The position numbers and the translations under genes were made by a program. Shown in pieces: positions 38,926 through 59,494 of a stretch of DNA of 64,000 nt. The notes beneath the pieces are model-generated. The model saw only the letters and a program-made list of their open reading frames with translations. It searched no databases and had not been told where the DNA came from. The stretch is from Patescibacteria group bacterium (GTDB taxonomy: Bacteria > Patescibacteriota > Patescibacteriia > UBA9934 > GWF2-40-263): positions 400-64,399 of the forward strand of contig SCUM01000001.1 of the NCBI GenBank assembly GCA_004297215.1, written 5' to 3'. Every line of letters begins with the position of its first letter. The first letter of the stretch is position 1.

Positions 38926-39357
38926 GTGAGCGCGGGCGGCCTCGTGTTCAAACGCACGCCGCGCGGCGTGCGGTTCGCGCTCATGAAGGATTCCTACGGC
39001 AAATGGGCGTTCCCCAAAGGCCACGTGGAACCGGATGAGACCCGCGAACAGGCCGCGGCGCGCGAGACGCTCGAGGAGCTCGGGCTCGATGAGGTGCGAC
39101 TGCTCGAATACCTGGGCGCCATCGACATCTGGTTCCGCGACCGGTTCGAAAAGAAAGGGACGCTGATCCACAAGGACATCCACTACTTCCTGTTCGAGAC
39201 CGCGGAAGACGCCGAACTGCATCCCGATCCGGAACAGCATGCGTATGACGCGCGCTGGGTGGCCCCCGGGAAGCTCATCGAATCGTCAAGTTACAAGGAC
39301 ATGGAACCGGTCATCAAGCGGGCGCTCGGGTTCATCTCGGCCTTGCATCGCGGATGA
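38926..39357 (+). CDS. NUDIX hydrolase
   Basis: Nudix box GHVEPDETREQAAARETLEELG. The start is uncertain (GTG at 38926, or a later ATG). Confidence 0.55.
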   Translation: MSAGGLVFKRTPRGVRFALMKDSYGKWAFPKGHVEPDETREQAAARETLEELGLDEVRLLEYLGAIDIWFRDRFEKKGTLIHKDIHYFLFETAEDAELHPDPEQHAYDARWVAPGKLIESSSYKDMEPVIKRALGFISALHRG

Positions 39358-39415
39358 CGGATTTCCAGGGCTTTGCTATAGTGTTTTCGTTAGAACTAAC
39401 TTATCCACAAGCGAT

Positions 39416-50165: not shown

Positions 50166-50240
50166 TTTGAAAGGTTGTAAAAGTGATAAAGGTGTTGGAA
50201 CCTTTTTATCAAAAATATTCCACCACCTTTCAAACCTTTC
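50166..50240. repeat. AT-rich intergenic inverted repeat (aggtttgaaaggt ... acctttcaaacct)
   Basis: 13-bp perfect arms separated by about 45 nt. Confidence 0.5.
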
Positions 50241-50263
50241 CCACCCTTACAACCTCCGTCATT

Positions 50264-51706
50264 ATGTCCAAGACTTCCACCTACGACGTGATCGTGATCG
50301 GAGCCGGCTCGGCCGGTTTTTCTGCTGCCGAAGAAGCGCGTCGGCTTGGCGCTTCGGTGTGTCTGGTGGAGAAAGGGAAGTTAGGCGGCGAATGCCCCAA
50401 TTGGGCGTGCGTGCCGAGCAAGGCGCTGTTGCGCGGGGCCAAGCTGATGCGCGAGGCGCGCGCCGCCGAGCGGTTCGGGGTGAAGACCGGCGCGGTGTCG
50501 CTCTCCTTGCCCGACGCGTTCGCGTATCGCTCCAAGGTGGTCGCGTCGATCACCGGCGGCGGGGAGCGCGGCGCGCGGTACGAGCGCCTCACCGCGCGCG
50601 CCGGCATGGACGTCGTGTACGGCGAAGCGGCCTTCACCGACCCATACGCCCTCGAGGTGGGGGAGAAACGCCTCATCGGCAAGGCGTTCGTGATCGCCAC
50701 GGGAACGGAAGAATTCCTCCCGCCCGTGCCCGGGCTTTCCGACATCGGCTACCTCACGTCGAAGACCGTCCATGAGCTCACGCGCGCCCCCAAATCCATC
50801 GCCATCGTTGGCGGCGGACCGGTGGGATGCGAGTACGCCACGTTTTTCAGCGCATGCGGGACGCGCGTCGTGCTCATCCAAAGCGCGCCGAGGCTGCTCA
50901 ACCGCGAAGATCCGGAGATTTCGGCCCTGGCGCGCAAGACGCTCGAAAGCCAAGGGGTGGAAGTGGCCTGCGGCGCCAAGCTCGTCGAAGTCATCAACGG
51001 GCGCGGCGGGGTGTATGGCCTCAAGACCGAGGGCGCCGACGGGAACCTGCCTGCCGGCAGGCAGGACGCCACGCATGCGGTGGAAGCCGTCCTTGTCGCG
51101 GCGGGCAAGCGCGCGGCCGTGGCAGGGCTGAACCTTGCCGATGCGGGCGCTTCGCTCGACGCGCAGGGGTTCGTGAAGACCGACCGGAGCGCGCGGACGA
51201 ACCTCAAGCACGTGTTCGCGGCCGGCGACGTGGATGGCGGCTCCCTGTTCACGCACGTGGCGCACCACGAGGGCGTGGTGGCCGGACACAATGCCGCCCT
51301 GGTCGCGCGGGGGAAGCGGGCGGGATTCCAGCAAGTGGACGAGCGCGTGGTCCCGCGCGTCACGTTCGTCGACCCCGAGGTGGCATCGGTCGGGTTCACG
51401 GCCGAGGAAGCCAAGGCCAAGTTCAAGCTCAAGAAGGTGCTCGTGGGCCGGTTTCCGATCCAGGCGCTCGGCCGCGCGGCCACGGATCATGCGGCGGAGG
51501 GGATGGTGAAGCTCGTCGCGCACCCGAAGACGGGCAAGCTCCTCGGCGGCCATATCGTCGCCGAGCGCGCCGGGGAGATGATCCACGAGGTCGCCCTCGC
51601 CATCCACCTGGGCGCGACGGCGGAGAAGCTGGGTTCGATGATTCATGCATATCCGACGTATAGCGAAGCGGTTTTGGCAGCGGCGAACAGCCTGGTCACT
51701 GAGTGA
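50264..51706 (+). CDS. Pyridine nucleotide-disulfide oxidoreductase (dihydrolipoamide dehydrogenase / mercuric reductase family)
   Basis: DVIVIGAGSAGFSAA (FAD) and redox-active GGECPNWACVPSK. A second Rossmann motif and the dimerisation domain are present. Confidence 0.8.
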   Translation: MSKTSTYDVIVIGAGSAGFSAAEEARRLGASVCLVEKGKLGGECPNWACVPSKALLRGAKLMREARAAERFGVKTGAVSLSLPDAFAYRSKVVASITGGGERGARYERLTARAGMDVVYGEAAFTDPYALEVGEKRLIGKAFVIATGTEEFLPPVPGLSDIGYLTSKTVHELTRAPKSIAIVGGGPVGCEYATFFSACGTRVVLIQSAPRLLNREDPEISALARKTLESQGVEVACGAKLVEVINGRGGVYGLKTEGADGNLPAGRQDATHAVEAVLVAAGKRAAVAGLNLADAGASLDAQGFVKTDRSARTNLKHVFAAGDVDGGSLFTHVAHHEGVVAGHNAALVARGKRAGFQQVDERVVPRVTFVDPEVASVGFTAEEAKAKFKLKKVLVGRFPIQALGRAATDHAAEGMVKLVAHPKTGKLLGGHIVAERAGEMIHEVALAIHLGATAEKLGSMIHAYPTYSEAVLAAANSLVTE

Positions 51707-51730: not shown

Positions 51731-52312
51731 ATGGCTGGAAAGGAAGTGGTGCTAGACATCGAGACGGCGAATACGTTCCAGGAGGTGGGAGCCTATGACC
51801 ATTCGAAATTGATCATTTCGGTCATTGGAGTCTATTTCTACGAGAACGACGAATACAAGGCGTACGAGGTGCCCGAACTCGCGGAGCTCTGGCCCAGGCT
51901 CGAACGGGCCGACCGCATCATCGGGTTCAATACGCTCGGGTTCGATTTGCCGGTGATGAATAACTATTACCCGGGCAATTTGATGACGTTTTGCAATTTG
52001 GACCTCATGGCCGAGGTGGAAAAGGCGCTCGGTCACCGCATGAAGCTCGACGACCTCGCGAGCGCGAGCCTCGGACACGGCAAGACCGGTCACGGGCTGC
52101 AGGCCGTGGAGTGGTGGAAGCAAGGTCGCAAGGAAGATGTGAAGAAATACTGCCTCGACGACGTACGGGTCACCAAGGAACTGTACGAATACGGCCTCAA
52201 GTACAAGGCGCTCGCGTACGAGGATCGGCTTGGGGGTCGAAAAGGCATTCCCGTGGACTTTTCTCCCAAGGCGCACGAGGCAACGAAGATAAACCTGACG
52301 ATGCCGTTCTAA
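51731..52312 (+). CDS. DEDD-family 3'-5' exonuclease (RNase H-like fold)
   Basis: Exo motif I VLDIETANTF. Motif II GFNTLGFDLPV. Motif III YCLDDVRVTKELY. Confidence 0.6.
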   Translation: MAGKEVVLDIETANTFQEVGAYDHSKLIISVIGVYFYENDEYKAYEVPELAELWPRLERADRIIGFNTLGFDLPVMNNYYPGNLMTFCNLDLMAEVEKALGHRMKLDDLASASLGHGKTGHGLQAVEWWKQGRKEDVKKYCLDDVRVTKELYEYGLKYKALAYEDRLGGRKGIPVDFSPKAHEATKINLTMPF

Positions 52313-52501
52313 ATCCCATCGCGTGTTATCCACAGCTGAAAAAACACCTAACCACTGGTGTTTTTTGGCGCTTGAAGCGCCCTAGGCAACGGCCTACAAT
52401 GACGAAGCACCGTAAGGCATTTCCTTGCGTGGCCTCTCGTCGCTGGTGGCATGGTCTTGTTGGACAATCCATGCAATCGGGTTGTTTTTTTCTGCCTCAT
52501 T

Positions 52502-54277
52502 ATGAACGACCGAGCCAACAACGCGCACGCGCAGGCAGGCCGCTTCTATTTCACGTCCATCAAGTCCGTCCGCGCCCCCGACGGCCGCACCGAGGCGTTC
52601 GACCCGGCGCGCCTCGAGCAATCCGTTCGGGACGCCTTTTTGGCGGCCGGCATCACGGGCGAGCAGAACGAGCAGATGGTGCTGCACGTCACCGACGAGA
52701 CCGTGGCCAAGCTCACCTTTGCCTACGGCGACCAGGAGCCGGAGCGCTTCGACGTGCGGCAGATCACGCATTCGGTGCTCATCGACAACAACCTGTCGCT
52801 CGTGGCCTCCGCCTACCTCATGCGCACCGAGGGGCCGCGCCTGCTCCAGGGAGAGGAGCCGCACGTGCCCAGCGGCAAGAAAGGCCCGCCCATCGCCTCC
52901 CGCCGCCGGCTCCCCAACGAACGCGCTTCCATCACGCATAAGTTCCAGATCGGCTCGCACCGCGGGTACGTCACGGTGGGCCTGTACGAGGACGGCTCCC
53001 CCGGCGAGATCTTCGTCCGGATGAGCAAGGAGGGGAGCACCATGGCGGGCCTGCTCGACAGCCTCGCCACCTCGGTGTCCATCGCCCTCCAGTACGGGGT
53101 GCCGTTGCGCGTCCTCGTCGACAAGTTCAGCCATGTCCATTTCGAGCCCAGCGGCTTCACCGAGCACCAGAACGTCCGGTACGCCAAGAGCGTGGTGGAT
53201 TACCTCTTCCGCTGGCTCGGCATCAAGTTCCCGGAGGCGATGGCGCGACAGAAGTCGCTTGACGCGGACGCGCCGGAGGAAGCCGCCCCGGCGAGCGCGG
53301 AAGGGATCAGCAAGGGGCTCATCGGCACCTGTCCGATGCTCACCCCGCGCAAGGTGTACAAGCCGATGGAGTACCCCCAGTACTTCGACTATTTCCAAAA
53401 GCAGAACCAGGCGCACTGGATGCCGCTTGAGGTGCCGATGGAGTCGGACATCAACGATTACAAGCACAAGCTGACGGCCGAGGAGCGCAACCTCGTCATC
53501 AACATCCTCCGGTTCTTCACGCAGGGCGACCTCGAGGTCAACAACAACTACAACAGCCACCTCATCCCGTTCTTCCCCAAGCCCGAGATCAAGATGATGC
53601 TCACCGCCTTCGCCCAGATGGAGGGGATCCACGTGTGGGCGTACTCCTACCTCAACGACTCGCTGGGCCTGCCGGACGCCGAGTACAGCGCGTTCCTCGA
53701 CATCAAGTCGATGCGCGCCAAGTACGACTACATCCAGAACTTCGACGTGCGCACGCTCGAGGACCTGGCCGTGAACCTGGCCGTGTTCGGCGGGTTCATG
53801 GAAGGGGTGAGCCTGTTCTCGAGCTTCGCGATCCTCATGCACTTCCCGCGCATGGGCAAGCTCAAGGGCGTGGGGCAGATCGTCACCTGGAGCATCCGCG
53901 ACGAGTCGCTGCATTCCATGGGCGTGTGCAACCTGTTCCGCGACCTCATTTCCGAGAATCGCCTCATCTGGACCGACGAGCTGCGAAAGACGCTCTACGG
54001 CGCCTGCCAGGACATGGTGGGCCTCGAGGACGCCTTCATCGACACCTGCTTCCAGATGGGCGACGTCCCCGGCCTGACGGCGGACGAGGTCAAGCAGTAC
54101 ATCCGTTACATCGCCGATCGCCGATTGAACGACCTCGGGCTCGACGCGGCGTACGGCCTCGTCAAGAACCCGCTCCCGTGGCTCGACACCATGATCAACG
54201 CCAAGGAGCACGTCAACTTCTTCGAGAATCGCGCCACCGAGTACACGAAGGGAGGAGTGATAAACGATTGGACATAA
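52502..54277 (+). CDS. nrdB: Ribonucleotide reductase radical-generating subunit NrdB, fused N-terminally to an ATP-cone and a segment resembling the C-terminal (TSCPD-like) domain of class II NrdJ
   Basis: ATP-cone IKSVRAPDGRTEAFDPARLEQSV...VRQITHSVLIDNNLSLVASAYLMRTEG. Middle block THKFQIGSHRGYVTVGLYEDGSPGEIFVRMSKEGSTMAGLLDSLATSVSIALQYGVPL...GTCPM. R2 ferritin-like domain with FAQMEGIHVWAYSY (Glu/His/Tyr) and IRDESLH. Single uninterrupted ORF. Confidence 0.7.
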   Translation: MNDRANNAHAQAGRFYFTSIKSVRAPDGRTEAFDPARLEQSVRDAFLAAGITGEQNEQMVLHVTDETVAKLTFAYGDQEPERFDVRQITHSVLIDNNLSLVASAYLMRTEGPRLLQGEEPHVPSGKKGPPIASRRRLPNERASITHKFQIGSHRGYVTVGLYEDGSPGEIFVRMSKEGSTMAGLLDSLATSVSIALQYGVPLRVLVDKFSHVHFEPSGFTEHQNVRYAKSVVDYLFRWLGIKFPEAMARQKSLDADAPEEAAPASAEGISKGLIGTCPMLTPRKVYKPMEYPQYFDYFQKQNQAHWMPLEVPMESDINDYKHKLTAEERNLVINILRFFTQGDLEVNNNYNSHLIPFFPKPEIKMMLTAFAQMEGIHVWAYSYLNDSLGLPDAEYSAFLDIKSMRAKYDYIQNFDVRTLEDLAVNLAVFGGFMEGVSLFSSFAILMHFPRMGKLKGVGQIVTWSIRDESLHSMGVCNLFRDLISENRLIWTDELRKTLYGACQDMVGLEDAFIDTCFQMGDVPGLTADEVKQYIRYIADRRLNDLGLDAAYGLVKNPLPWLDTMINAKEHVNFFENRATEYTKGGVINDWT

Positions 54278-54284
54278 CCCCGCT

Positions 54285-56192
54285 ATGGCCGCCTACGCAT
54301 CCGTCATAGACGCGTTGTCGAAGAACGACCTTTGGGGCGCGCGCGACGTGCTCCTCGAGAAGATCCTCAAGGAGGTAGAAGGCCGCCACAGCTGGGACGC
54401 CCCGTGGTACAGCGCGGACAAGGCGGTCCAGCAGGGCATCCGGCTCGCCCCGGAGCGCAACAAGCTGTTCTCGTATTTCGGGCTGGAGAACCTGTACGAC
54501 CGCTACCTCCTGCGCGACGAGGCGGGAAAGATCGTGGAGGAGCCGCAGACGTTTTACGCGCGCATCGCGACCGGCATCGCGCGCGGGGACGCCGCCTTCG
54601 CGCAGGAGCTCTATGACATCATGAGCCGTCACTGGTTCCTGCCGGCCACGCCCGTGCTCATGAACGTCGGCACCGACAAGGGCCTGCCCATCTCCTGCTT
54701 CCTCAACACCGTGCCGGACACGCTCGAGGGGATCTTCGACCTGTATCGGGAGAACGCCTTCCTTGCCAAAAACGGCGGGGGGATCGGCACAGACTGGTCG
54801 CGCCTGCGCGGGAACAACGCCCCGCTCAAGAAGAGCGGCCTCAAGTCCTCCGGGGTGATCCCGTTCCTCAAGGTCATGGATTCCGAGACGCTCGCCATCT
54901 CGCGCAATTCCATCCGCCGCGGGGCCGCCGCCGCCTACCTGCGCATCGACCACCCGGACATCGAGGAGTTCCTGGAGATCCGCAAGCCCACGGGCGGGGA
55001 CATCGACCGCAAATGCCTCAACCTGCACCAGGCCGTGGTGCTCACCGATGATTTCATGCGCGCGGTGGAGAAGGGGGAGACGTATCCGCTCGTCGACCCG
55101 CACTACAAGACGGTCGCCAAGAAGCTGGATGCGGTGGAGATGTGGCGCAAGATCCTCACGATGCGCGCCGAGACCGGGGAGCCGTACATGATGTTCCTCG
55201 ACACGGTGAACCGCGCCGTCCCGCCGCATCACCGGCAGAAGGGGCTCCTGGTGAACCAGAGCAACCTGTGCGCGGAAATCGTGCTTCCGACCAACGACGA
55301 GCGCACGGCCGTCTGTTGCCTGTCCAGCCTCAACCTCGAGCGCTACGACGAGTGGAGGGACCGGATGGGGCATGTGGTGGCGCTCGCCGTGAAGGCGCTT
55401 GACAACAACCTCGACACCTTCATCGAGATGGCCGATCCCGTGGAATTCAAGAAGGCGATCTTCTCGGCCAAGTCGGAACGGTCCGTGGGCCTCGGGGTGA
55501 TGGGGTACCACGGCTACCTCATGAGCAAGGGATTCCCGTTCGAGAGCGTGGCCGCGCGCGCGTTCAACAAGGAGTTCTTCGCCCTCCTCCAGGCGCACGC
55601 CAATGCCGCGTCGGAAGCGCTCGCCAAGGAGCGCGGGCTCCCGCTCGACGGGGGGACGCGTCGCAACAGCTATCTGCTGTCGCTCCAGCCCACCGCGTCC
55701 ACCGCGTTTTTATGCGGCGAGGCATCCCCTTGCGTCGAACCGATCACCGGCAACGCCTACCTGCAGAAGACCCTTTCCGGCAGCTTCCTCGTGAAGAACA
55801 AGTATCTAGACAAGCTGCTCACCGAAAAGGGGATCAACGACGAGGAAACGTGGAAGTCCATCATCGCCGGGCGCGGGAGCGTGCAGCACCTCGATGCGCT
55901 CACCGACGCCGAGAAGGCGCTCTACCGCACCGCCGAGGAGATGAACATGCGCGAGATCGTGCAGCAGGCGGCGGACCGCCAGCCGTTCATCTGCCAGGCC
56001 CAGTCCATCAACCTGTTCTTCCGAGCGCCCATCTCGGGCAAGTACATGCACGAGACGCACATGCTCGCCTGGAAGGCCGGGGTGAAGACGCTCTACTACC
56101 TGCGCTCCAGCGCGCCCATCGAGGCCGACAAGATCGACATGAAGTCGTTCAAGCGCGACCTTGCCAACGAGGAATGCGCGGTCTGCCAATGA
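54285..56192 (+). CDS. nrdA: Ribonucleotide reductase catalytic subunit NrdA (class I-type 10-stranded barrel) lacking an ATP-cone
   Basis: NLCAEIVLPT (Cys-Glu), LRIDHPDIEEF, QSINLFF, LYYLRS. C-terminal CAVCQ (CxxC tail). Confidence 0.8.
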   Translation: MAAYASVIDALSKNDLWGARDVLLEKILKEVEGRHSWDAPWYSADKAVQQGIRLAPERNKLFSYFGLENLYDRYLLRDEAGKIVEEPQTFYARIATGIARGDAAFAQELYDIMSRHWFLPATPVLMNVGTDKGLPISCFLNTVPDTLEGIFDLYRENAFLAKNGGGIGTDWSRLRGNNAPLKKSGLKSSGVIPFLKVMDSETLAISRNSIRRGAAAAYLRIDHPDIEEFLEIRKPTGGDIDRKCLNLHQAVVLTDDFMRAVEKGETYPLVDPHYKTVAKKLDAVEMWRKILTMRAETGEPYMMFLDTVNRAVPPHHRQKGLLVNQSNLCAEIVLPTNDERTAVCCLSSLNLERYDEWRDRMGHVVALAVKALDNNLDTFIEMADPVEFKKAIFSAKSERSVGLGVMGYHGYLMSKGFPFESVAARAFNKEFFALLQAHANAASEALAKERGLPLDGGTRRNSYLLSLQPTASTAFLCGEASPCVEPITGNAYLQKTLSGSFLVKNKYLDKLLTEKGINDEETWKSIIAGRGSVQHLDALTDAEKALYRTAEEMNMREIVQQAADRQPFICQAQSINLFFRAPISGKYMHETHMLAWKAGVKTLYYLRSSAPIEADKIDMKSFKRDLANEECAVCQ

Positions 56193-56215
56193 ATGGAGAA
56201 GGCGTAAGAATCAGC

Positions 56216-56246
56216 AAAAGAGACGATGAATCGTCTCTTTTGTACG
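56216..56246 (+). terminator. Rho-independent terminator (aagagacga-tgaa-tcgtctctt, then ttgt)
   Basis: Perfect 9-bp stem directly after the nrdA stop. Confidence 0.65.
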
Positions 56247-56250
56247 AACT

Positions 56251-56538
56251 ATGGTTTTTAACGACGAACAGAAAAAAAAATTCGTTCAACATCTTGATTC
56301 AGTTTGGGAAAAACAAAACTGCTGGATTTGTTCTTCAGATAACTGGACAATTCTAGACAAAGCTTTTCAAGTAACCGAATTTTTTCCAGGTTCCTTACTG
56401 ACTGCGGGAAAAGTGATGCCATTCGTTGCGCTGGTGTGCAACAAGTGTGGCAATACCCTTTTCCTCAACGCTTATAAGGTCGGCGTGCTTAAAGTGGAGC
56501 CGACAGAGGTTGAGAAAGGTCATGCCGAAGAAAAATAG
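56251..56538 (+). CDS. Small zinc-finger-like protein (95 aa; CWIC ... CNKCG)
   Basis: Two CxxC pairs. Low GC. First gene of the island. Confidence 0.35.
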   Translation: MVFNDEQKKKFVQHLDSVWEKQNCWICSSDNWTILDKAFQVTEFFPGSLLTAGKVMPFVALVCNKCGNTLFLNAYKVGVLKVEPTEVEKGHAEEK

Positions 56539-56878
56539 TAAAATGACTTCTGGCTTCGGGATTCTGACCGAGATGCCCGATCCTGCCCACGAAACTCGCC
56601 TTGCGATTCGGAAGGCTGATTGGAACCGCCTGAAGAAGGGGGTTGCTACAATCTGCGAAGAGGGCTGGTTTGATGTTAGGATTCGGGATATCGGAGTCGG
56701 GGCCCTTGTTGGAGGACTTACTATGCTGATTACGGGTCCGAGGGAATGGGGAGCCGCACTCGTTGCTGCTTCGGTGTTGATTTTGTGGGCAGACAGCATT
56801 CGCCATAAAGGACGGAAAAGCATCTGCCAGCATCTCCACGAAGACATGGTTTCCGTCGAAGAGACCTTCCAAAAGTAA
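56522..56878 (+). CDS. Small membrane protein (118 aa, 2 TM helices)
   Basis: Overlaps the upstream small ORF by 17 nt. Helices IGVGALVGGLTMLITG and AALVAASVLILWA. Confidence 0.35.
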   Translation: MPKKNSKMTSGFGILTEMPDPAHETRLAIRKADWNRLKKGVATICEEGWFDVRIRDIGVGALVGGLTMLITGPREWGAALVAASVLILWADSIRHKGRKSICQHLHEDMVSVEETFQK

Positions 56879-56977
56879 GACACTCATGACGGGGGTATTT
56901 GTCGCTTGATGCATGGTAGAATAATTGTGCGTTCGAAGTTGAGGAGTGCAGGTCCGGAAGGAAACCTGACAATCCGT

Positions 56978-58327
56978 ATGCCTAACAAGCGTTTTAAGAC
57001 CATTTCTCTTTTTTCTGGTGCGATGGGTCTTGATATTGGCCTGGAAAGGACTGGGGCTTTCGATTTGCTCGCGGCCGTCGAAAAAGAGCCAGTTTTTTGT
57101 GAAACAATTCGACAAAATTGTGCCGCTGGTAGGGTTGGAAATAAAAAACTTTGGGTATACGAAGGGGACATAACAGGATTTGATCCAAAGAGGGTGATGA
57201 AGGATGTCGGCGTCAGCCCAGGAGAACTCGACCTTCTCGTTGGTGGTCCGCCTTGTCAGAGTTTCAGCACTGCTGGTAAGCGAGGGACGGTTTCGGATCC
57301 GAGAGGTACGTTGATTTGGCAGTTCCTCCGCTTCGTCGAGATAATGCGCCCACGCTTCTTTTTGATGGAGAACGTGCGCGGCCTTCTTTCTGCGGCGCTA
57401 AAACAGAGACCAGTAAAAATGAGGCCGGATCGGGGAGGCCCTCCACTTGAGGACGACGAACTTCCCGGGTCGGTCGTCAGGCGATTCGCGGCAGATTTCG
57501 AAAAGATCGGTTATCGTTTTGATTGTTTCGAGGTCAACGCGGTCAATTACGGTGCACCACAAATTCGAGAAAGGGCATTATTTATCGGGAATCGGTTCGG
57601 TGAAGTGGTGGATTTTCCCATGCCGACTCATGGAGTTGGGGACGAACAAATAGCTCAGACGAAGCTGCTCGCTTCAGGTATAACCATGTTCCAACCACGC
57701 CGGACGCTCCGTAACGCGATTGGCGACTTACGAGAAGTGAATCCGGTAATTTTGGATTTCAGTCCGCGGAAAAAACGGTTTCTTTCCCTGATTCCACAAG
57801 GGGGAAACTGGCGTTCATTGCCAGAGGAATTGCAAAAGGAATCGATGGGGAAAGCTTGGAAAGCGAAAGGGGGGCGTTCTGGCTGGTGGCGGAGATTGAA
57901 TTTTGATTTACCCTCGCCAACAGTCGTGACGATGCCAAATCACGCAAGCACAGCTTTGTGTCACCCCACGGAAGTTCGAGCATTGACTTTGAGGGAGTGC
58001 GCGCGGATACAGGAGTTTCCTGATGCGTGGCAGTTCTGCGGAACCGCTCAGCAGCAGTACGCTCAAGTCGGGAATGCGGTTCCAACACGACTTGGTCACG
58101 TGGCTGGCCAGACACTTGTCGGATTGTTGCAAAAACATGTTAGTAAAAAAGGGGAGGCCATTTCTCCACTTGCGCCAAGCCGAGTCATTTATCTTCAATC
58201 ACATATTCGTACACGGCAGTGGTTCAAGAGCGGCCAAGCTGTAATTTGGAAAGACGGGAAGGAAAATCATCAGATGGCACCGAAGACAGTTCGGGCCGAA
58301 AGAGCATTAGCAAGTTATGCCCGGTAG
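56978..58327 (+). CDS. DNA (cytosine-5)-methyltransferase (Dcm-type)
   Basis: Motif I ISLFSGAMGLDIG. Motif IV GGPPCQSFS. Motif VI LMENVRGL. Motif VIII QIRERALF. Motif X QVGNAVP. Confidence 0.85.
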   Translation: MPNKRFKTISLFSGAMGLDIGLERTGAFDLLAAVEKEPVFCETIRQNCAAGRVGNKKLWVYEGDITGFDPKRVMKDVGVSPGELDLLVGGPPCQSFSTAGKRGTVSDPRGTLIWQFLRFVEIMRPRFFLMENVRGLLSAALKQRPVKMRPDRGGPPLEDDELPGSVVRRFAADFEKIGYRFDCFEVNAVNYGAPQIRERALFIGNRFGEVVDFPMPTHGVGDEQIAQTKLLASGITMFQPRRTLRNAIGDLREVNPVILDFSPRKKRFLSLIPQGGNWRSLPEELQKESMGKAWKAKGGRSGWWRRLNFDLPSPTVVTMPNHASTALCHPTEVRALTLRECARIQEFPDAWQFCGTAQQQYAQVGNAVPTRLGHVAGQTLVGLLQKHVSKKGEAISPLAPSRVIYLQSHIRTRQWFKSGQAVIWKDGKENHQMAPKTVRAERALASYAR

Positions 58328-59408
58328 ATCGTTAGATGAGTTTTACATGACGCAACGGAGGCGCACGTCTTTCGATCCGAAGGAGCTGAAGGAACTTTTC
58401 CGTCAGATGGATCAAAAGCGCGTTAAGGCTTTGGCTTCGAGCATCGCGGCGCACATTGCTGCGAATTTGCAACGAACGGTCGAAAGGAAATCGAAGTTGT
58501 CTGACTACCGCACCAGCCCATACGTTCTTACTGCCATTTCGAGCGTGATGAATCTGGCCAAGCCTTTAGATTTAGCGCGATTTCTTCTCGATACCAAGTT
58601 GTATACTGGTTTGGAAACCTCATTTGGCAAACAGATTGAAAGCGCATTCGTACAACATTATCCTTCGCTTGATGGGTTGTCTGGCCGATGGACTGACCCA
58701 ATCGAGAAGTTGGAAGAATTCGCTGGACTCAAAGGGCTTACCAGAGAGACGAAAGCCTCAAAGAGGTCGCATTCGGTTTGGCGAGAGATCGATAAGGAAT
58801 GCACGGTAGGCGACCGCAGATATCTAGTTTCGATAAAAAGCGGTCCGCACTGCATCAATGATACGCAGGTGGCGGGTATGGTTCATGCGATTAAAGAAAA
58901 CTATTTGGAATGGTTGCAGGCAAGCAAGAAAGCGAATCCAAAAGTTAAAGGAATTGATGTAGTTATCGGCTTGACGTATGGGACGCCAGCGACCACCAAT
59001 AATAAAGAAAATCAAATTCTTGTTAAATTAAGGGGAGATGGATTTGAGCCTTTGAAGGGAAAAAATGGAGTACTCGTCGACAAGAGAACAAAATCCGTTC
59101 GGGTTTATCGAGCTGTTGGAATTGACTTCTGGTCATTCATCGGTGACCCCCGTAGTCCAAATAAGGCTCGTCACACATTCCTTGAAGCATTACTTGCATT
59201 ATCTTTGGCCATGCGAGCTGGCGAAGGGCGTGAATCACTTCTTGATTCAATTCAGGCACGAGGCATAGCACTTGCCCGTGCAATTGAAGCAATCGTGTTG
59301 AGTTTTCCCCAAAGCCTTTTCCCCAAATGGGCACATCGGGAATTATCCGATGATGAATTCCTTTGGTTGAGTACGGCCATCACATCATTCTACGATGAGG
59401 GAGTATAA
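58317..59408 (+). CDS. Putative type II restriction endonuclease cognate to the adjacent methyltransferase
   Basis: Overlaps the methyltransferase by 11 nt. 363 aa with no recognisable motif beyond a candidate PD-(D/E)xK-like VGD...LVSIKSG. Assigned mainly from position. Confidence 0.4.
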   Translation: MPGRSLDEFYMTQRRRTSFDPKELKELFRQMDQKRVKALASSIAAHIAANLQRTVERKSKLSDYRTSPYVLTAISSVMNLAKPLDLARFLLDTKLYTGLETSFGKQIESAFVQHYPSLDGLSGRWTDPIEKLEEFAGLKGLTRETKASKRSHSVWREIDKECTVGDRRYLVSIKSGPHCINDTQVAGMVHAIKENYLEWLQASKKANPKVKGIDVVIGLTYGTPATTNNKENQILVKLRGDGFEPLKGKNGVLVDKRTKSVRVYRAVGIDFWSFIGDPRSPNKARHTFLEALLALSLAMRAGEGRESLLDSIQARGIALARAIEAIVLSFPQSLFPKWAHRELSDDEFLWLSTAITSFYDEGV

Positions 59409-59494
59409 TGACAGAAAGACTCCCGACGCGATGTCGTGGGTTTGCGTTTGACCCATTCGACAGCGCAGGCAAAACGCCGTACAACATGCTGTAT

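Follow-up and report, generated by a model that had tools for sequence, protein, structure and literature searches.

N-terminal additions to NrdB, the small (beta) subunit of class I ribonucleotide reductase (RNR), have been published in three forms, ATP-cone::NrdBi, Grx::ATP-cone::NrdBi and Grx::NrdB, where Grx denotes glutaredoxin (for the first two: PMC5794259, PMC6187632). ATP-cones located on NrdB switch activity off via dATP-induced beta4 tetramers (PMC5794259, PMC6187632). In these enzymes, represented by NrdBi of Leeuwenhoekiella blandensis and Grx::ATP-cone::NrdBi of Facklamia ignava, the cone is N-terminal on NrdB and a cone-less NrdA is encoded downstream. The same order is encountered in a stretch of 64,000 nucleotides from a Patescibacteria group bacterium (assembly GCA_004297215.1, contig SCUM01000001.1, positions 400 to 64,399), which as a whole is referred to here as the window. 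There, a fusion nrdB gene encodes an ATP-cone, a cysteine-free module assignable to the C-terminal domain of class II reductases (NrdJ) and an NrdB core in one polypeptide, and is followed by a cone-less nrdA.

The C-terminal domain of class II NrdJ (CRD) was described by Loderer et al. as a region of 150-220 amino acids that consists of a conserved, largely hydrophobic part and six invariant zinc/redox cysteines, and the six-cysteine array performs electron transfer (PMC5704485). Burnim et al. recognized the same region as an 'IscU-like domain', with structural homology to IscU, plus a zinc finger; most copies of the IscU-like domain are without the IscU cysteines, and no role was reported for it (PMC9669993). 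The module has been described only in class II enzymes and in NrdJb (PMC9669993, PMC5704485). An earlier note on this DNA had regarded the combination of cone, module and NrdB as undescribed, and in agreement with it no description of this architecture was found in the searchable literature, the coverage of which excludes most subscription papers. Within the same literature no papers linking TSCPD, the Pfam family to which the module belongs, with ribonucleotide reductase were found, and the papers of Burnim et al. on IscU-like domains of RNRs contain no mention of NrdB.

The fusion protein and its domains

The fusion gene occupies a single open reading frame (ORF) on the + strand. The ORF listing gives the frame (52451/52502..54277) without interruption, as the earlier note had claimed for 52502-54277, and the MN... 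codon at 52502 was chosen as the start of the protein, judged by where homologues begin. The note had also considered that the cone and TSCPD part might be a separate small protein, which does not apply in the window, where there is one ORF. The operon consists of the following features.

52502..54277, + strand: fusion nrdB gene, 591 amino acids (aa), with ATP-cone, linker, Cys-less NrdJ-type module, linker and NrdB core in a single ORF
52565..52822, + strand: ATP-cone of the Patescibacterial NrdJ type, residues 22-107 (Pfam, 25.3 bits; AlphaFold2; cone hidden Markov model, HMM)
52823..52894, + strand: linker 1, residues 108-131, variable (23% mean pairwise identity; 20-41 residues in the family; predicted local distance difference test score, pLDDT, <50)
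52895..53233, + strand: Cys-less TSCPD, 'IscU-like' or CRD-N module, residues 132-244, apparently NrdJ-derived (Pfam, PRK06556 alignment, conservation)
53234..53329, + strand: linker 2, residues 245-276, variable (22% identity; 29-37 residues), coinciding with the gene boundary in split relatives
53330..54277, + strand: NrdB core, residues 277-591, with Asp/Glu/His ligands, radical-site Tyr and C-terminal tail (PF00268, NF007186)
54285..56192, + strand: nrdA, 635 aa, without ATP-cone and with its own C-terminal CxxC (PF00317 and PF02867; NF006577, 722 bits)

The note had read an ATP-cone, a module of the class II NrdJ C-terminal type and a complete NrdB from the sequence, and these domain calls are borne out by Pfam, as the note had proposed to check, and by NCBIfam. 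In Pfam, the ATP-cone match lies 0.5 bits short of the gathering score of 25.8, TSCPD (PF12637) is matched by residues 147-239 at 44.2 bits (cutoff 22.8; profile positions 6-84 of 88), and Ribonuc_red_sm (PF00268) by residues 283-557 at 237.5 bits (cutoff 33.6). Among the NCBIfam models, residues 130-261 align with positions 739-870 of the 960-position model PRK06556 of B12-dependent NrdJ (E 2.6e-50), and the C-terminal half matches the NrdB model NF007186 at 439 bits (cutoff 237). AlphaFold2 predicts the whole protein as three separate folded units that are joined by low-confidence linkers (predicted template modelling score, pTM, 0.45).

A homologue search over 5.8 billion proteins recovered about 40 protein clusters that are 62-89% identical over the full length and possess the same three Pfam domains, from NCBI, JGI, ENA and Logan assemblies. 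The fusion is not an assembly artefact, since clusters from independent assemblies share its architecture. The named hosts are Patescibacteria, Candidatus Uhrbacteria or Parcubacteria, and the nearest species-level genome is that of Candidatus Uhrbacteria bacterium RIFOXYB12_FULL_58_10 (78% over residues 5-282). All three Pfam families are matched in each of 35 aligned family members, the ATP-cone (PF03477) at E <= 0.01 throughout, with a best value of 3e-12, and TSCPD likewise in 35 of 35. The operon itself, a fusion nrdB followed by a cone-less nrdA of about 635 aa, recurs at four other loci (L002, L003, L004 and L012), and the fusion proteins are publicly annotated merely as 'ribonucleotide-diphosphate reductase subunit beta'. 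An exhaustive HMMER scan over 1.84 billion representatives, clustered at 50% identity, encountered cone and module end to end in only one representative (P0011) and the module itself in thousands of proteins, 877 of them at E <= 1e-30.

By sequence, the middle module represents the N-terminal part of the class II CRD, in which there are no cysteines. Window residues 143-243 are 72% identical to residues 893-993 of a Patescibacterial NrdJ (locus L025), and identities of 60-74% are found with many NrdJs. Modelled alone with NrdJ-derived homologues, the module adopts a three-stranded sheet followed by helices (pLDDT 88, pTM 0.81). It fits the conserved, largely hydrophobic N-terminal part of the CRD with single conserved polar residues. 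Those that are invariant in both NrdJ and the fusion are R8, E14, R15, T19, H20, D38, K50, D60, S67, Q71, Y72, E89, S91, K103, S104, D107, Y108, R111 and W112 (A2 numbering), and they cover the positions at which Cys-containing TSCPD domains bear their cysteines. The 35-member alignment contains no conserved Cys in residues 1-270, and the eponymous TSCPD motif is not present, its position being occupied by AKSVVDY.

The folded module is shorter than the roughly 200 aa estimated in the earlier note, as it comprises about 113 aa (residues 132-244) between two variable linkers. In all 35 members it has exactly 113 residues with no insertions or deletions, and its mean pairwise identity is 85%, compared with 81% for the NrdB core and 48% for the ATP-cone. 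These values show strong purifying selection on the module, the most conserved segment of the protein.

In NrdJ, the sequence runs on past the module into a six-Cys zinc-finger/redox array with the consensus DAPxCxxCG...CYKCxNCG..GCS, and the complete L025 NrdJ ends ...DAPACDTCGSMMVRNGACYKCLNCGATSGCS. This tail is missing from the fusion, in which the site of the array is taken by variable linker 2 and then by NrdB. The EECAVCQ tail of NrdA is kept in fusion, split, cone-only and module-less operons alike. It had been proposed in the earlier note that the redox-tail module was moved onto the small subunit; this relocation is rejected because the six-Cys array is absent, the module is devoid of conserved cysteines and the NrdA tail is present in every operon type.

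From its residues, the NrdB core would have an ordinary dimetal site of Asp, Glu and His ligands and a radical-site tyrosine. Residues D343, E374, H377, Y381, E434, E468, H471 and Y581 are invariant in the 35 sequences, and the radical-site Tyr (Y381) is found four residues past the first His (H377); by motif spacing, we take the ligands and the Tyr to correspond to E. coli D84/E115/H118/Y122/E204/E238/H241. The motif GTCPM, which had been counted as part of the TSCPD-like block, belongs instead to the core as a conserved N-terminal motif of this NrdB clade. Its interpretation as a TSCPD remnant is ruled out by LFGACPLLTHR or SMCNMLTPR at the equivalent site in NrdBs that are split, cone-only or without the module; in the fusion family the Cys of the motif can be replaced by Ser or Ala. 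The closest solved relative of the core is PDB 9dws_A (328 aa; 312 bits, next best 145), an entry titled only 'ribonucleoside-diphosphate reductase', for which no paper was found. Matches to the F. johnsoniae (6cwo) and L. blandensis (5olk) structures score 132 and 96 bits, respectively, and the match to the Francisella-type Grx-NrdB model NF009398 scores 316 bits. The core is not clearly an NrdBi.

NrdA is composed of an all-alpha domain (Ribonuc_red_lgN) and a barrel, and terminates in EECAVCQ (C631/C634). Pfam, the ORF listing and this terminus agree with the earlier call of a cone-less NrdA with class I catalytic motifs and a CxxC tail. Invariant over seven operons are N327/C329/E331, C138, C344/C345, Y604/Y605 and the EECAVCQ tail, and the closest solved structure is the class Id alpha subunit 6dqw.

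Origin of the extension and its chromosomal slot

A scan of one genome per species yielded 45 loci. About 30 nrdJ loci of Patescibacteria/Uhrbacteria have ORFs of about 1060-1180 residues, measured from stop to stop, with ATP-cone, barrel, module and zinc finger. The L025 NrdJ (1040 aa) scores 1440 bits against PRK06556 (cutoff 859), contains ATP-cone, Ribonuc_red_2_N, barrel and TSCPD in Pfam, and is a bona fide B12-dependent RNR.

The cone of the fusion resembles the cones of these NrdJs. AlphaFold2 predicts it as a helical bundle with a beta-hairpin (pLDDT 85-90), window residues 6-121 align with residues 40-163 of the L025 NrdJ, and the homologous cone of the latter scores 46 bits against the Pfam ATP-cone. 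An HMM built from the cones of the fusion family scores 73-104 bits on the N-terminal cones of 24 Patescibacterial NrdJs and 55 bits on the cone of a split relative (P0253), and only 19-21 bits on those of two cone-only NrdB relatives (P0068 and P0069). With the latter the identity is 21%, and a common origin of the fusion cone with the P0068/P0069 cones is ruled out. These two proteins and P0072 (L005:5001-6347) are ATP-cone::NrdB proteins without the module, and their NrdB cores cluster with fusion subclade B at 92% neighbour-joining bootstrap. The surroundings of L005, with many small ORFs, an intein-containing helicase gene and a thioredoxin gene after nrdA, look like a mobile element or phage.

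All trees were made by neighbour-joining; the NrdB tree has 60 bootstrap replicates with weak deep nodes, and the module tree carries no support values. In the module tree, which is thus to be read without bootstrap, the fusion modules form one clade and the stand-alone and split modules another; both clades lie among the Patescibacterial NrdJ modules, with the NrdJs of other phyla outside. The extension of 245 residues is best described as the two non-catalytic ends of a local NrdJ. Parts of NrdJ that are missing from it are the catalytic middle of about 750 residues and the six-Cys zinc finger.

Related genomes also carry the extension, or its second half, as a gene of its own. On six contigs, cone and module are encoded by P0253 (314 aa; L008:6001-6945 / L009:2825-3769), which is without NrdB, and the gene order at L008/L009 is an RNase_H_2 gene, P0253, a separate NrdB (321 aa) and NrdA (644 aa). 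P0253 ends ...SHSV-TGA, and NrdB starts (MSQLLGACPLLT...) 7 nucleotides on in another frame, so that the split point is exactly where linker 2 ends in the fusion. The reality of the cone-plus-TSCPD unit is supported by this natural occurrence as a separate protein. Directly upstream of nrdB-nrdA in eight further species-level genomes (L036:2125-2628, with equivalents in L040, L041, L042, L044, L050, L054 and L055) is a module-only gene of about 160 aa. The encoded protein matches TSCPD only, with neither cone nor zinc finger, has the N-terminus G[DE]xF[VI]PRRRRL and a conserved SFLSR[LI][DE]-like motif at the C-terminus, and is a candidate third subunit of a class I RNR. Because three arrangements occur, fused, as a cone-plus-module gene and as a module-only gene, the cone/module unit appears to work both fused and in trans, as would be expected of a subunit that binds the holoenzyme. 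The proteins of about 160 aa and 314 aa are formally analogous to NrdJb, the separate module polypeptide of the Pseudomonas aeruginosa NrdJa+NrdJb system; however, NrdJb possesses a redox zinc finger that serves a class II barrel in thiol-disulphide exchange, whereas the Patescibacterial proteins are Cys-free and accompany class I NrdAB.

The nrdJ gene and the class I operon share one chromosomal slot. An orthologue of the RNase_H_2-family gene that precedes the operon in the window is located directly upstream of nrdJ in 21 loci, and the same position before the RNR gene is taken by an orthologue at all ten small or split class I loci, at the fusion loci and at the module-less locus L006. Farther upstream, two genes before the RNR operon, the window has a pyridine-nucleotide disulphide oxidoreductase gene (50183-51706) with a CxxxxC active site and a dimerisation domain. 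The order Pyr_redox, RNase_H_2, fusion nrdB, nrdA of the window corresponds to Pyr_redox, RNase_H_2, nrdJ at L043, and the Pyr_redox gene order is also present at L006; the oxidoreductase may be a reductant partner dedicated to the RNR. Of the assemblies that supplied the 45 loci, none gave both an NrdJ and a module-associated class I operon, which is suggestive within the limits of a pattern-limited scan. On the basis of this synteny, we infer an exchange of nrdJ for a class I nrdBA operon in situ, with the accessory ends of NrdJ retained. The slot and the intergenic leader contain the following features.

51731..52312, + strand: RNase_H_2-family (3'-5' exonuclease-like) gene, the synteny anchor (Pfam)
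52326..52334, + strand: DnaA-box consensus TTATCCACA in the nrd leader (exact match)
52372..52400, + strand: sigma-70-like promoter TTGAAG-17-TACAAT (consensus match only)
52462..52487, + strand: hairpin and U-run directly before the start codon, a terminator-like site

The 64-kb window contains two exact matches to the DnaA box TTATCCACA, with 0.08 expected, and many related loci, class I as well as class II and in every arrangement, have the same box in their RNR leaders. The second exact match (39401-39409) is situated in an ORF gap of about 600 nucleotides at 38.9-39.5 kb, with a one-mismatch box at 39164. Promoter hexamers similar to those of the window are present in L012 and L004, as is a similar leader element, GGGAYAA...GGTTGTTTTTT, these two being loci without NrdR-like boxes. 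The hairpin at 52462-52487 is possibly a leader attenuator, weakly supported by a folding z-score of only -0.8 and by three sequences, and Rfam gave no riboswitch or other known RNA in the leader. Leaders of nrdJ, of the small-gene operons and of fusion subclade B contain paired palindromes CCACWAGATSTWGTGG, 32 base pairs apart around a TATAAT (L002:7800-7815, L036:1956-2003, L025:1237-1252 and 17 other loci), which resemble NrdR operators by comparison with the NrdR-box consensus. In the window these palindromes have no match at up to three mismatches, and they are lacking in L012 and L004 too.

Modules of the Cys-less NrdJ type are also encountered outside RNR operons. P0244 (L010:5519-7273) and P0246, of about 575-585 aa, possess an N-terminal SIR2_2 domain, with ThsA, LmuA and Dsr1 as its best PADLOC matches, and two tandem modules; the neighbours of the L010 gene include a phage integrase and an M78 peptidase. 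The arrangement has the appearance of a defence-type architecture, so far undescribed, in which the module serves as C-terminal domain, perhaps a sensor. P0121 (L001:2098-2985; 295 aa) combines two tandem Cys-less modules with a CxxC...CxxC zinc-ribbon tail, resembling NrdJb, and is found among translation-related genes with no RNR gene within its 6-kb contig. As a tandem-module and zinc-ribbon protein in an unrelated context, it was rejected as a split version of the fusion.

Directly downstream of nrdA in the window there is a low-GC island (56200-59410; GC 0.50-0.54 against about 0.65; GC at third codon positions about 0.47). It encodes a C-5 cytosine DNA methylase (56906-58327), an EcoO109I-like type II restriction endonuclease (58317-59408) and a small CxxC...CxxC ORF (56251-56538), and is probably a horizontally acquired restriction-modification system.

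Possible roles of the module

What the module does in the fusion can be approached from the proteins in which it has been assayed. P. aeruginosa NrdJb, consisting of module and zinc finger, binds the catalytic NrdJa in trans with a dissociation constant of 690 nM; dATP lowers this value to 91 nM, and dATP together with substrate and cofactor lowers it to 54 nM (PMC4520616). The S. nassauensis enzyme NrdJd without its CRD shows intact catalysis when driven by dithiothreitol, and its dATP- and dGTP-induced tetramers and hexamers are abolished (PMC5704485). The same deletion destabilised dimers towards monomers and lowered effector affinity more than ten-fold, and the kinetics of NrdJd hint at a third nucleotide site (PMC5704485).

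By analogy with these enzymes, the module is, on balance, probably an interaction or oligomerisation appendage that would, together with the cone, set the quaternary state of a class I RNR in response to ATP/dATP. The accessory parts of NrdJ would have been kept since they could still work with the homologous catalytic barrel of NrdA. The module would dock on the alpha subunit and/or self-associate, as does the same domain in NrdJ and NrdJb, and the adjacent ATP-cone would make the assembly state responsive to ATP/dATP. In this way the beta subunit would control activity by means of quaternary structure, as in the ATP-cone::NrdB enzymes, while reduction of the active site would be left to the CxxC tail of NrdA itself. 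That the partner of the module is probably the catalytic subunit and/or the module itself is argued by the homology of the NrdA and NrdJ barrels and by the constraint on the module through the change of class.

Several points weigh against this interpretation. AlphaFold2 gives no confident arrangement of the domains in the full-length fusion (pTM 0.45). The canonical K-R before DG is replaced by A-P in the window cone (VRAPDG); other fusion subclades have IRRSDG or VRSRDG at this position, and the downstream E and aromatic residue are retained. We take the roles of these nucleotide-contacting residues from E. coli NrdA. Because of this replacement and the sub-gathering Pfam score, the window cone may not bind nucleotides as canonical cones do. 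The published assays used the whole CRD or NrdJb, that is, module and zinc finger together, and the binding and oligomerisation measured in them are properties of this combination. No module-specific insertion or discriminating residue was detected in NrdA in an underpowered comparison of 14 module-associated with 3 module-less operons, and NrdAs from the two kinds of operon are collinear. With regard to origin, the synteny could also arise if RNase_H_2 were functionally linked to RNRs of any kind, and the neighbour-joining domain trees have low support at deep nodes.

It is conceivable, although rather unlikely, that the module is a small-molecule sensor, in which a second nucleotide site (for example for purine deoxynucleoside triphosphates, dNTPs) drives oligomerisation and cone and module act as tandem sensors. 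The dense invariant polar residues common to NrdJ and the fusion module would suit such a site, as would the tandem modules behind a ThsA/LmuA-like SIR2 domain, which is the usual sensor position in defence proteins. However, no nucleotide-binding motif or fold match was recognized, a Foldseek search of the module against the PDB returned nothing at E < 0.1, and sensor domains of SIR2 proteins can bind proteins too. The direct binding assays of Loderer et al. were inconclusive (PMC5704485). A sensor would be compatible with the oligomerisation role favoured above. Less probable still is an adaptor that recruits the physiological reductant and, as this stayed the same, outlasted the switch of class. 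The module immediately precedes the redox zinc finger in NrdJ, and as neither thioredoxin nor glutaredoxin reduces S. nassauensis NrdJd, this enzyme must have a different donor (PMC5704485). The oxidoreductase gene two genes upstream in the window is found in L006 and L043 as well, yet the flanks of L002-L004 and L012 are without it; the cone-only operon L005 comes with a thioredoxin gene, and nothing links the module to any redox protein. The CxxC tails of class I NrdA are normally served by thioredoxin or glutaredoxin, which also counts against an adaptor.

A scaffold for metal or cofactor, IscU-like in nature and assisting assembly of the dimetal-tyrosyl site of NrdB, is very improbable. 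It draws on the structural homology with IscU described for the NrdJ domain by Burnim et al. (PMC9669993), on IscU entries among the Foldseek matches and on the fusion of the module to the metal-containing subunit. The IscU entries (ranks 6 and 25) have E values of 0.5-0.9 and TM scores of about 0.27 and are not significant, and sequence homology with IscU is not endorsed, since hhalign gave a probability of 0.7% against E. coli IscU. The Cys/Asp/His cluster ligands of IscU are not present in the module, which has no conserved Cys, and B12-dependent NrdJ, an enzyme without a dimetal cofactor, has this Cys-less module in highly conserved form. Finally, the extension might be an evolutionary scar or artefact, whether through chimeric assembly, as a pseudogene with a frameshift or as the functionless remains of a disrupted nrdJ. 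It does resemble leftover nrdJ ends at an old nrdJ locus, and the window cone is somewhat degenerate; but about 40 clusters from independent assemblies have the architecture intact, no other segment is as conserved as the module, which is without indels while the adjoining linkers drift freely, and intact stand-alone versions exist in eight or more species-level genomes and on six contigs. This explanation is hardly credible and is already contradicted by the conservation data.

Beyond the oligomerisation role, a wider and more tentative proposal, which we consider possible without expecting it to hold, is that the module is a class-independent third RNR component. It would bind the barrel and/or sense purine dNTPs, would set the oligomeric state and would have outlived an in-situ switch from class II to class I as a fused domain, as a cone-bearing subunit or as a free subunit of about 160 aa, and it would further have been recruited in tandem as a sensor for SIR2 defence proteins.

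Place among described reductases and implications

In comparison with ATP-cone::NrdBi, the fusion has a folded NrdJ-derived module of 113 aa between the cone and the NrdB core, its cone is of the Patescibacterial NrdJ type, and its host belongs to the Patescibacteria rather than to the Flavobacteriia or Firmicutes. Its core is distant from that of L. blandensis NrdB, and has an Asp as first ligand and a radical-site Tyr. In contrast to the class II CRD, of which it represents the N-terminal non-cysteine part, the module is placed on a class I beta subunit, without the six-Cys array and after an ATP-cone instead of a barrel. As both the array and the class II context are absent, the fusion is better read as a class I RNR regulated through beta than as a strict member of the CRD/NrdJb family. 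Both add-on domains were likely donated by the Patescibacterial NrdJ (about 1040-1120 aa), which occupies the same slot with the same leader elements; it is a complete B12 enzyme, whereas the fusion combines what appear to be its two ends with a ferritin-like radical generator and a separate NrdA.

Most non-monomeric class II RNRs possess the first half of the NrdJ C-terminal domain, a segment of very high conservation that published experiments could not examine apart from the zinc finger or the barrel. In the Patescibacterial operons this module is naturally free of both the redox zinc finger and the class II barrel, which makes its role directly testable, be it docking on alpha, oligomerisation or nucleotide sensing. 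The locus widens the repertoire of regulation through the beta subunit past ATP-cone::NrdBi and the Grx fusions, and provides a concrete example of accessory domains passed between RNR classes at a single chromosomal locus. It also has a bearing on how genome-reduced, cofactor-scavenging Patescibacteria shift between B12-dependent and O2-dependent dNTP synthesis.

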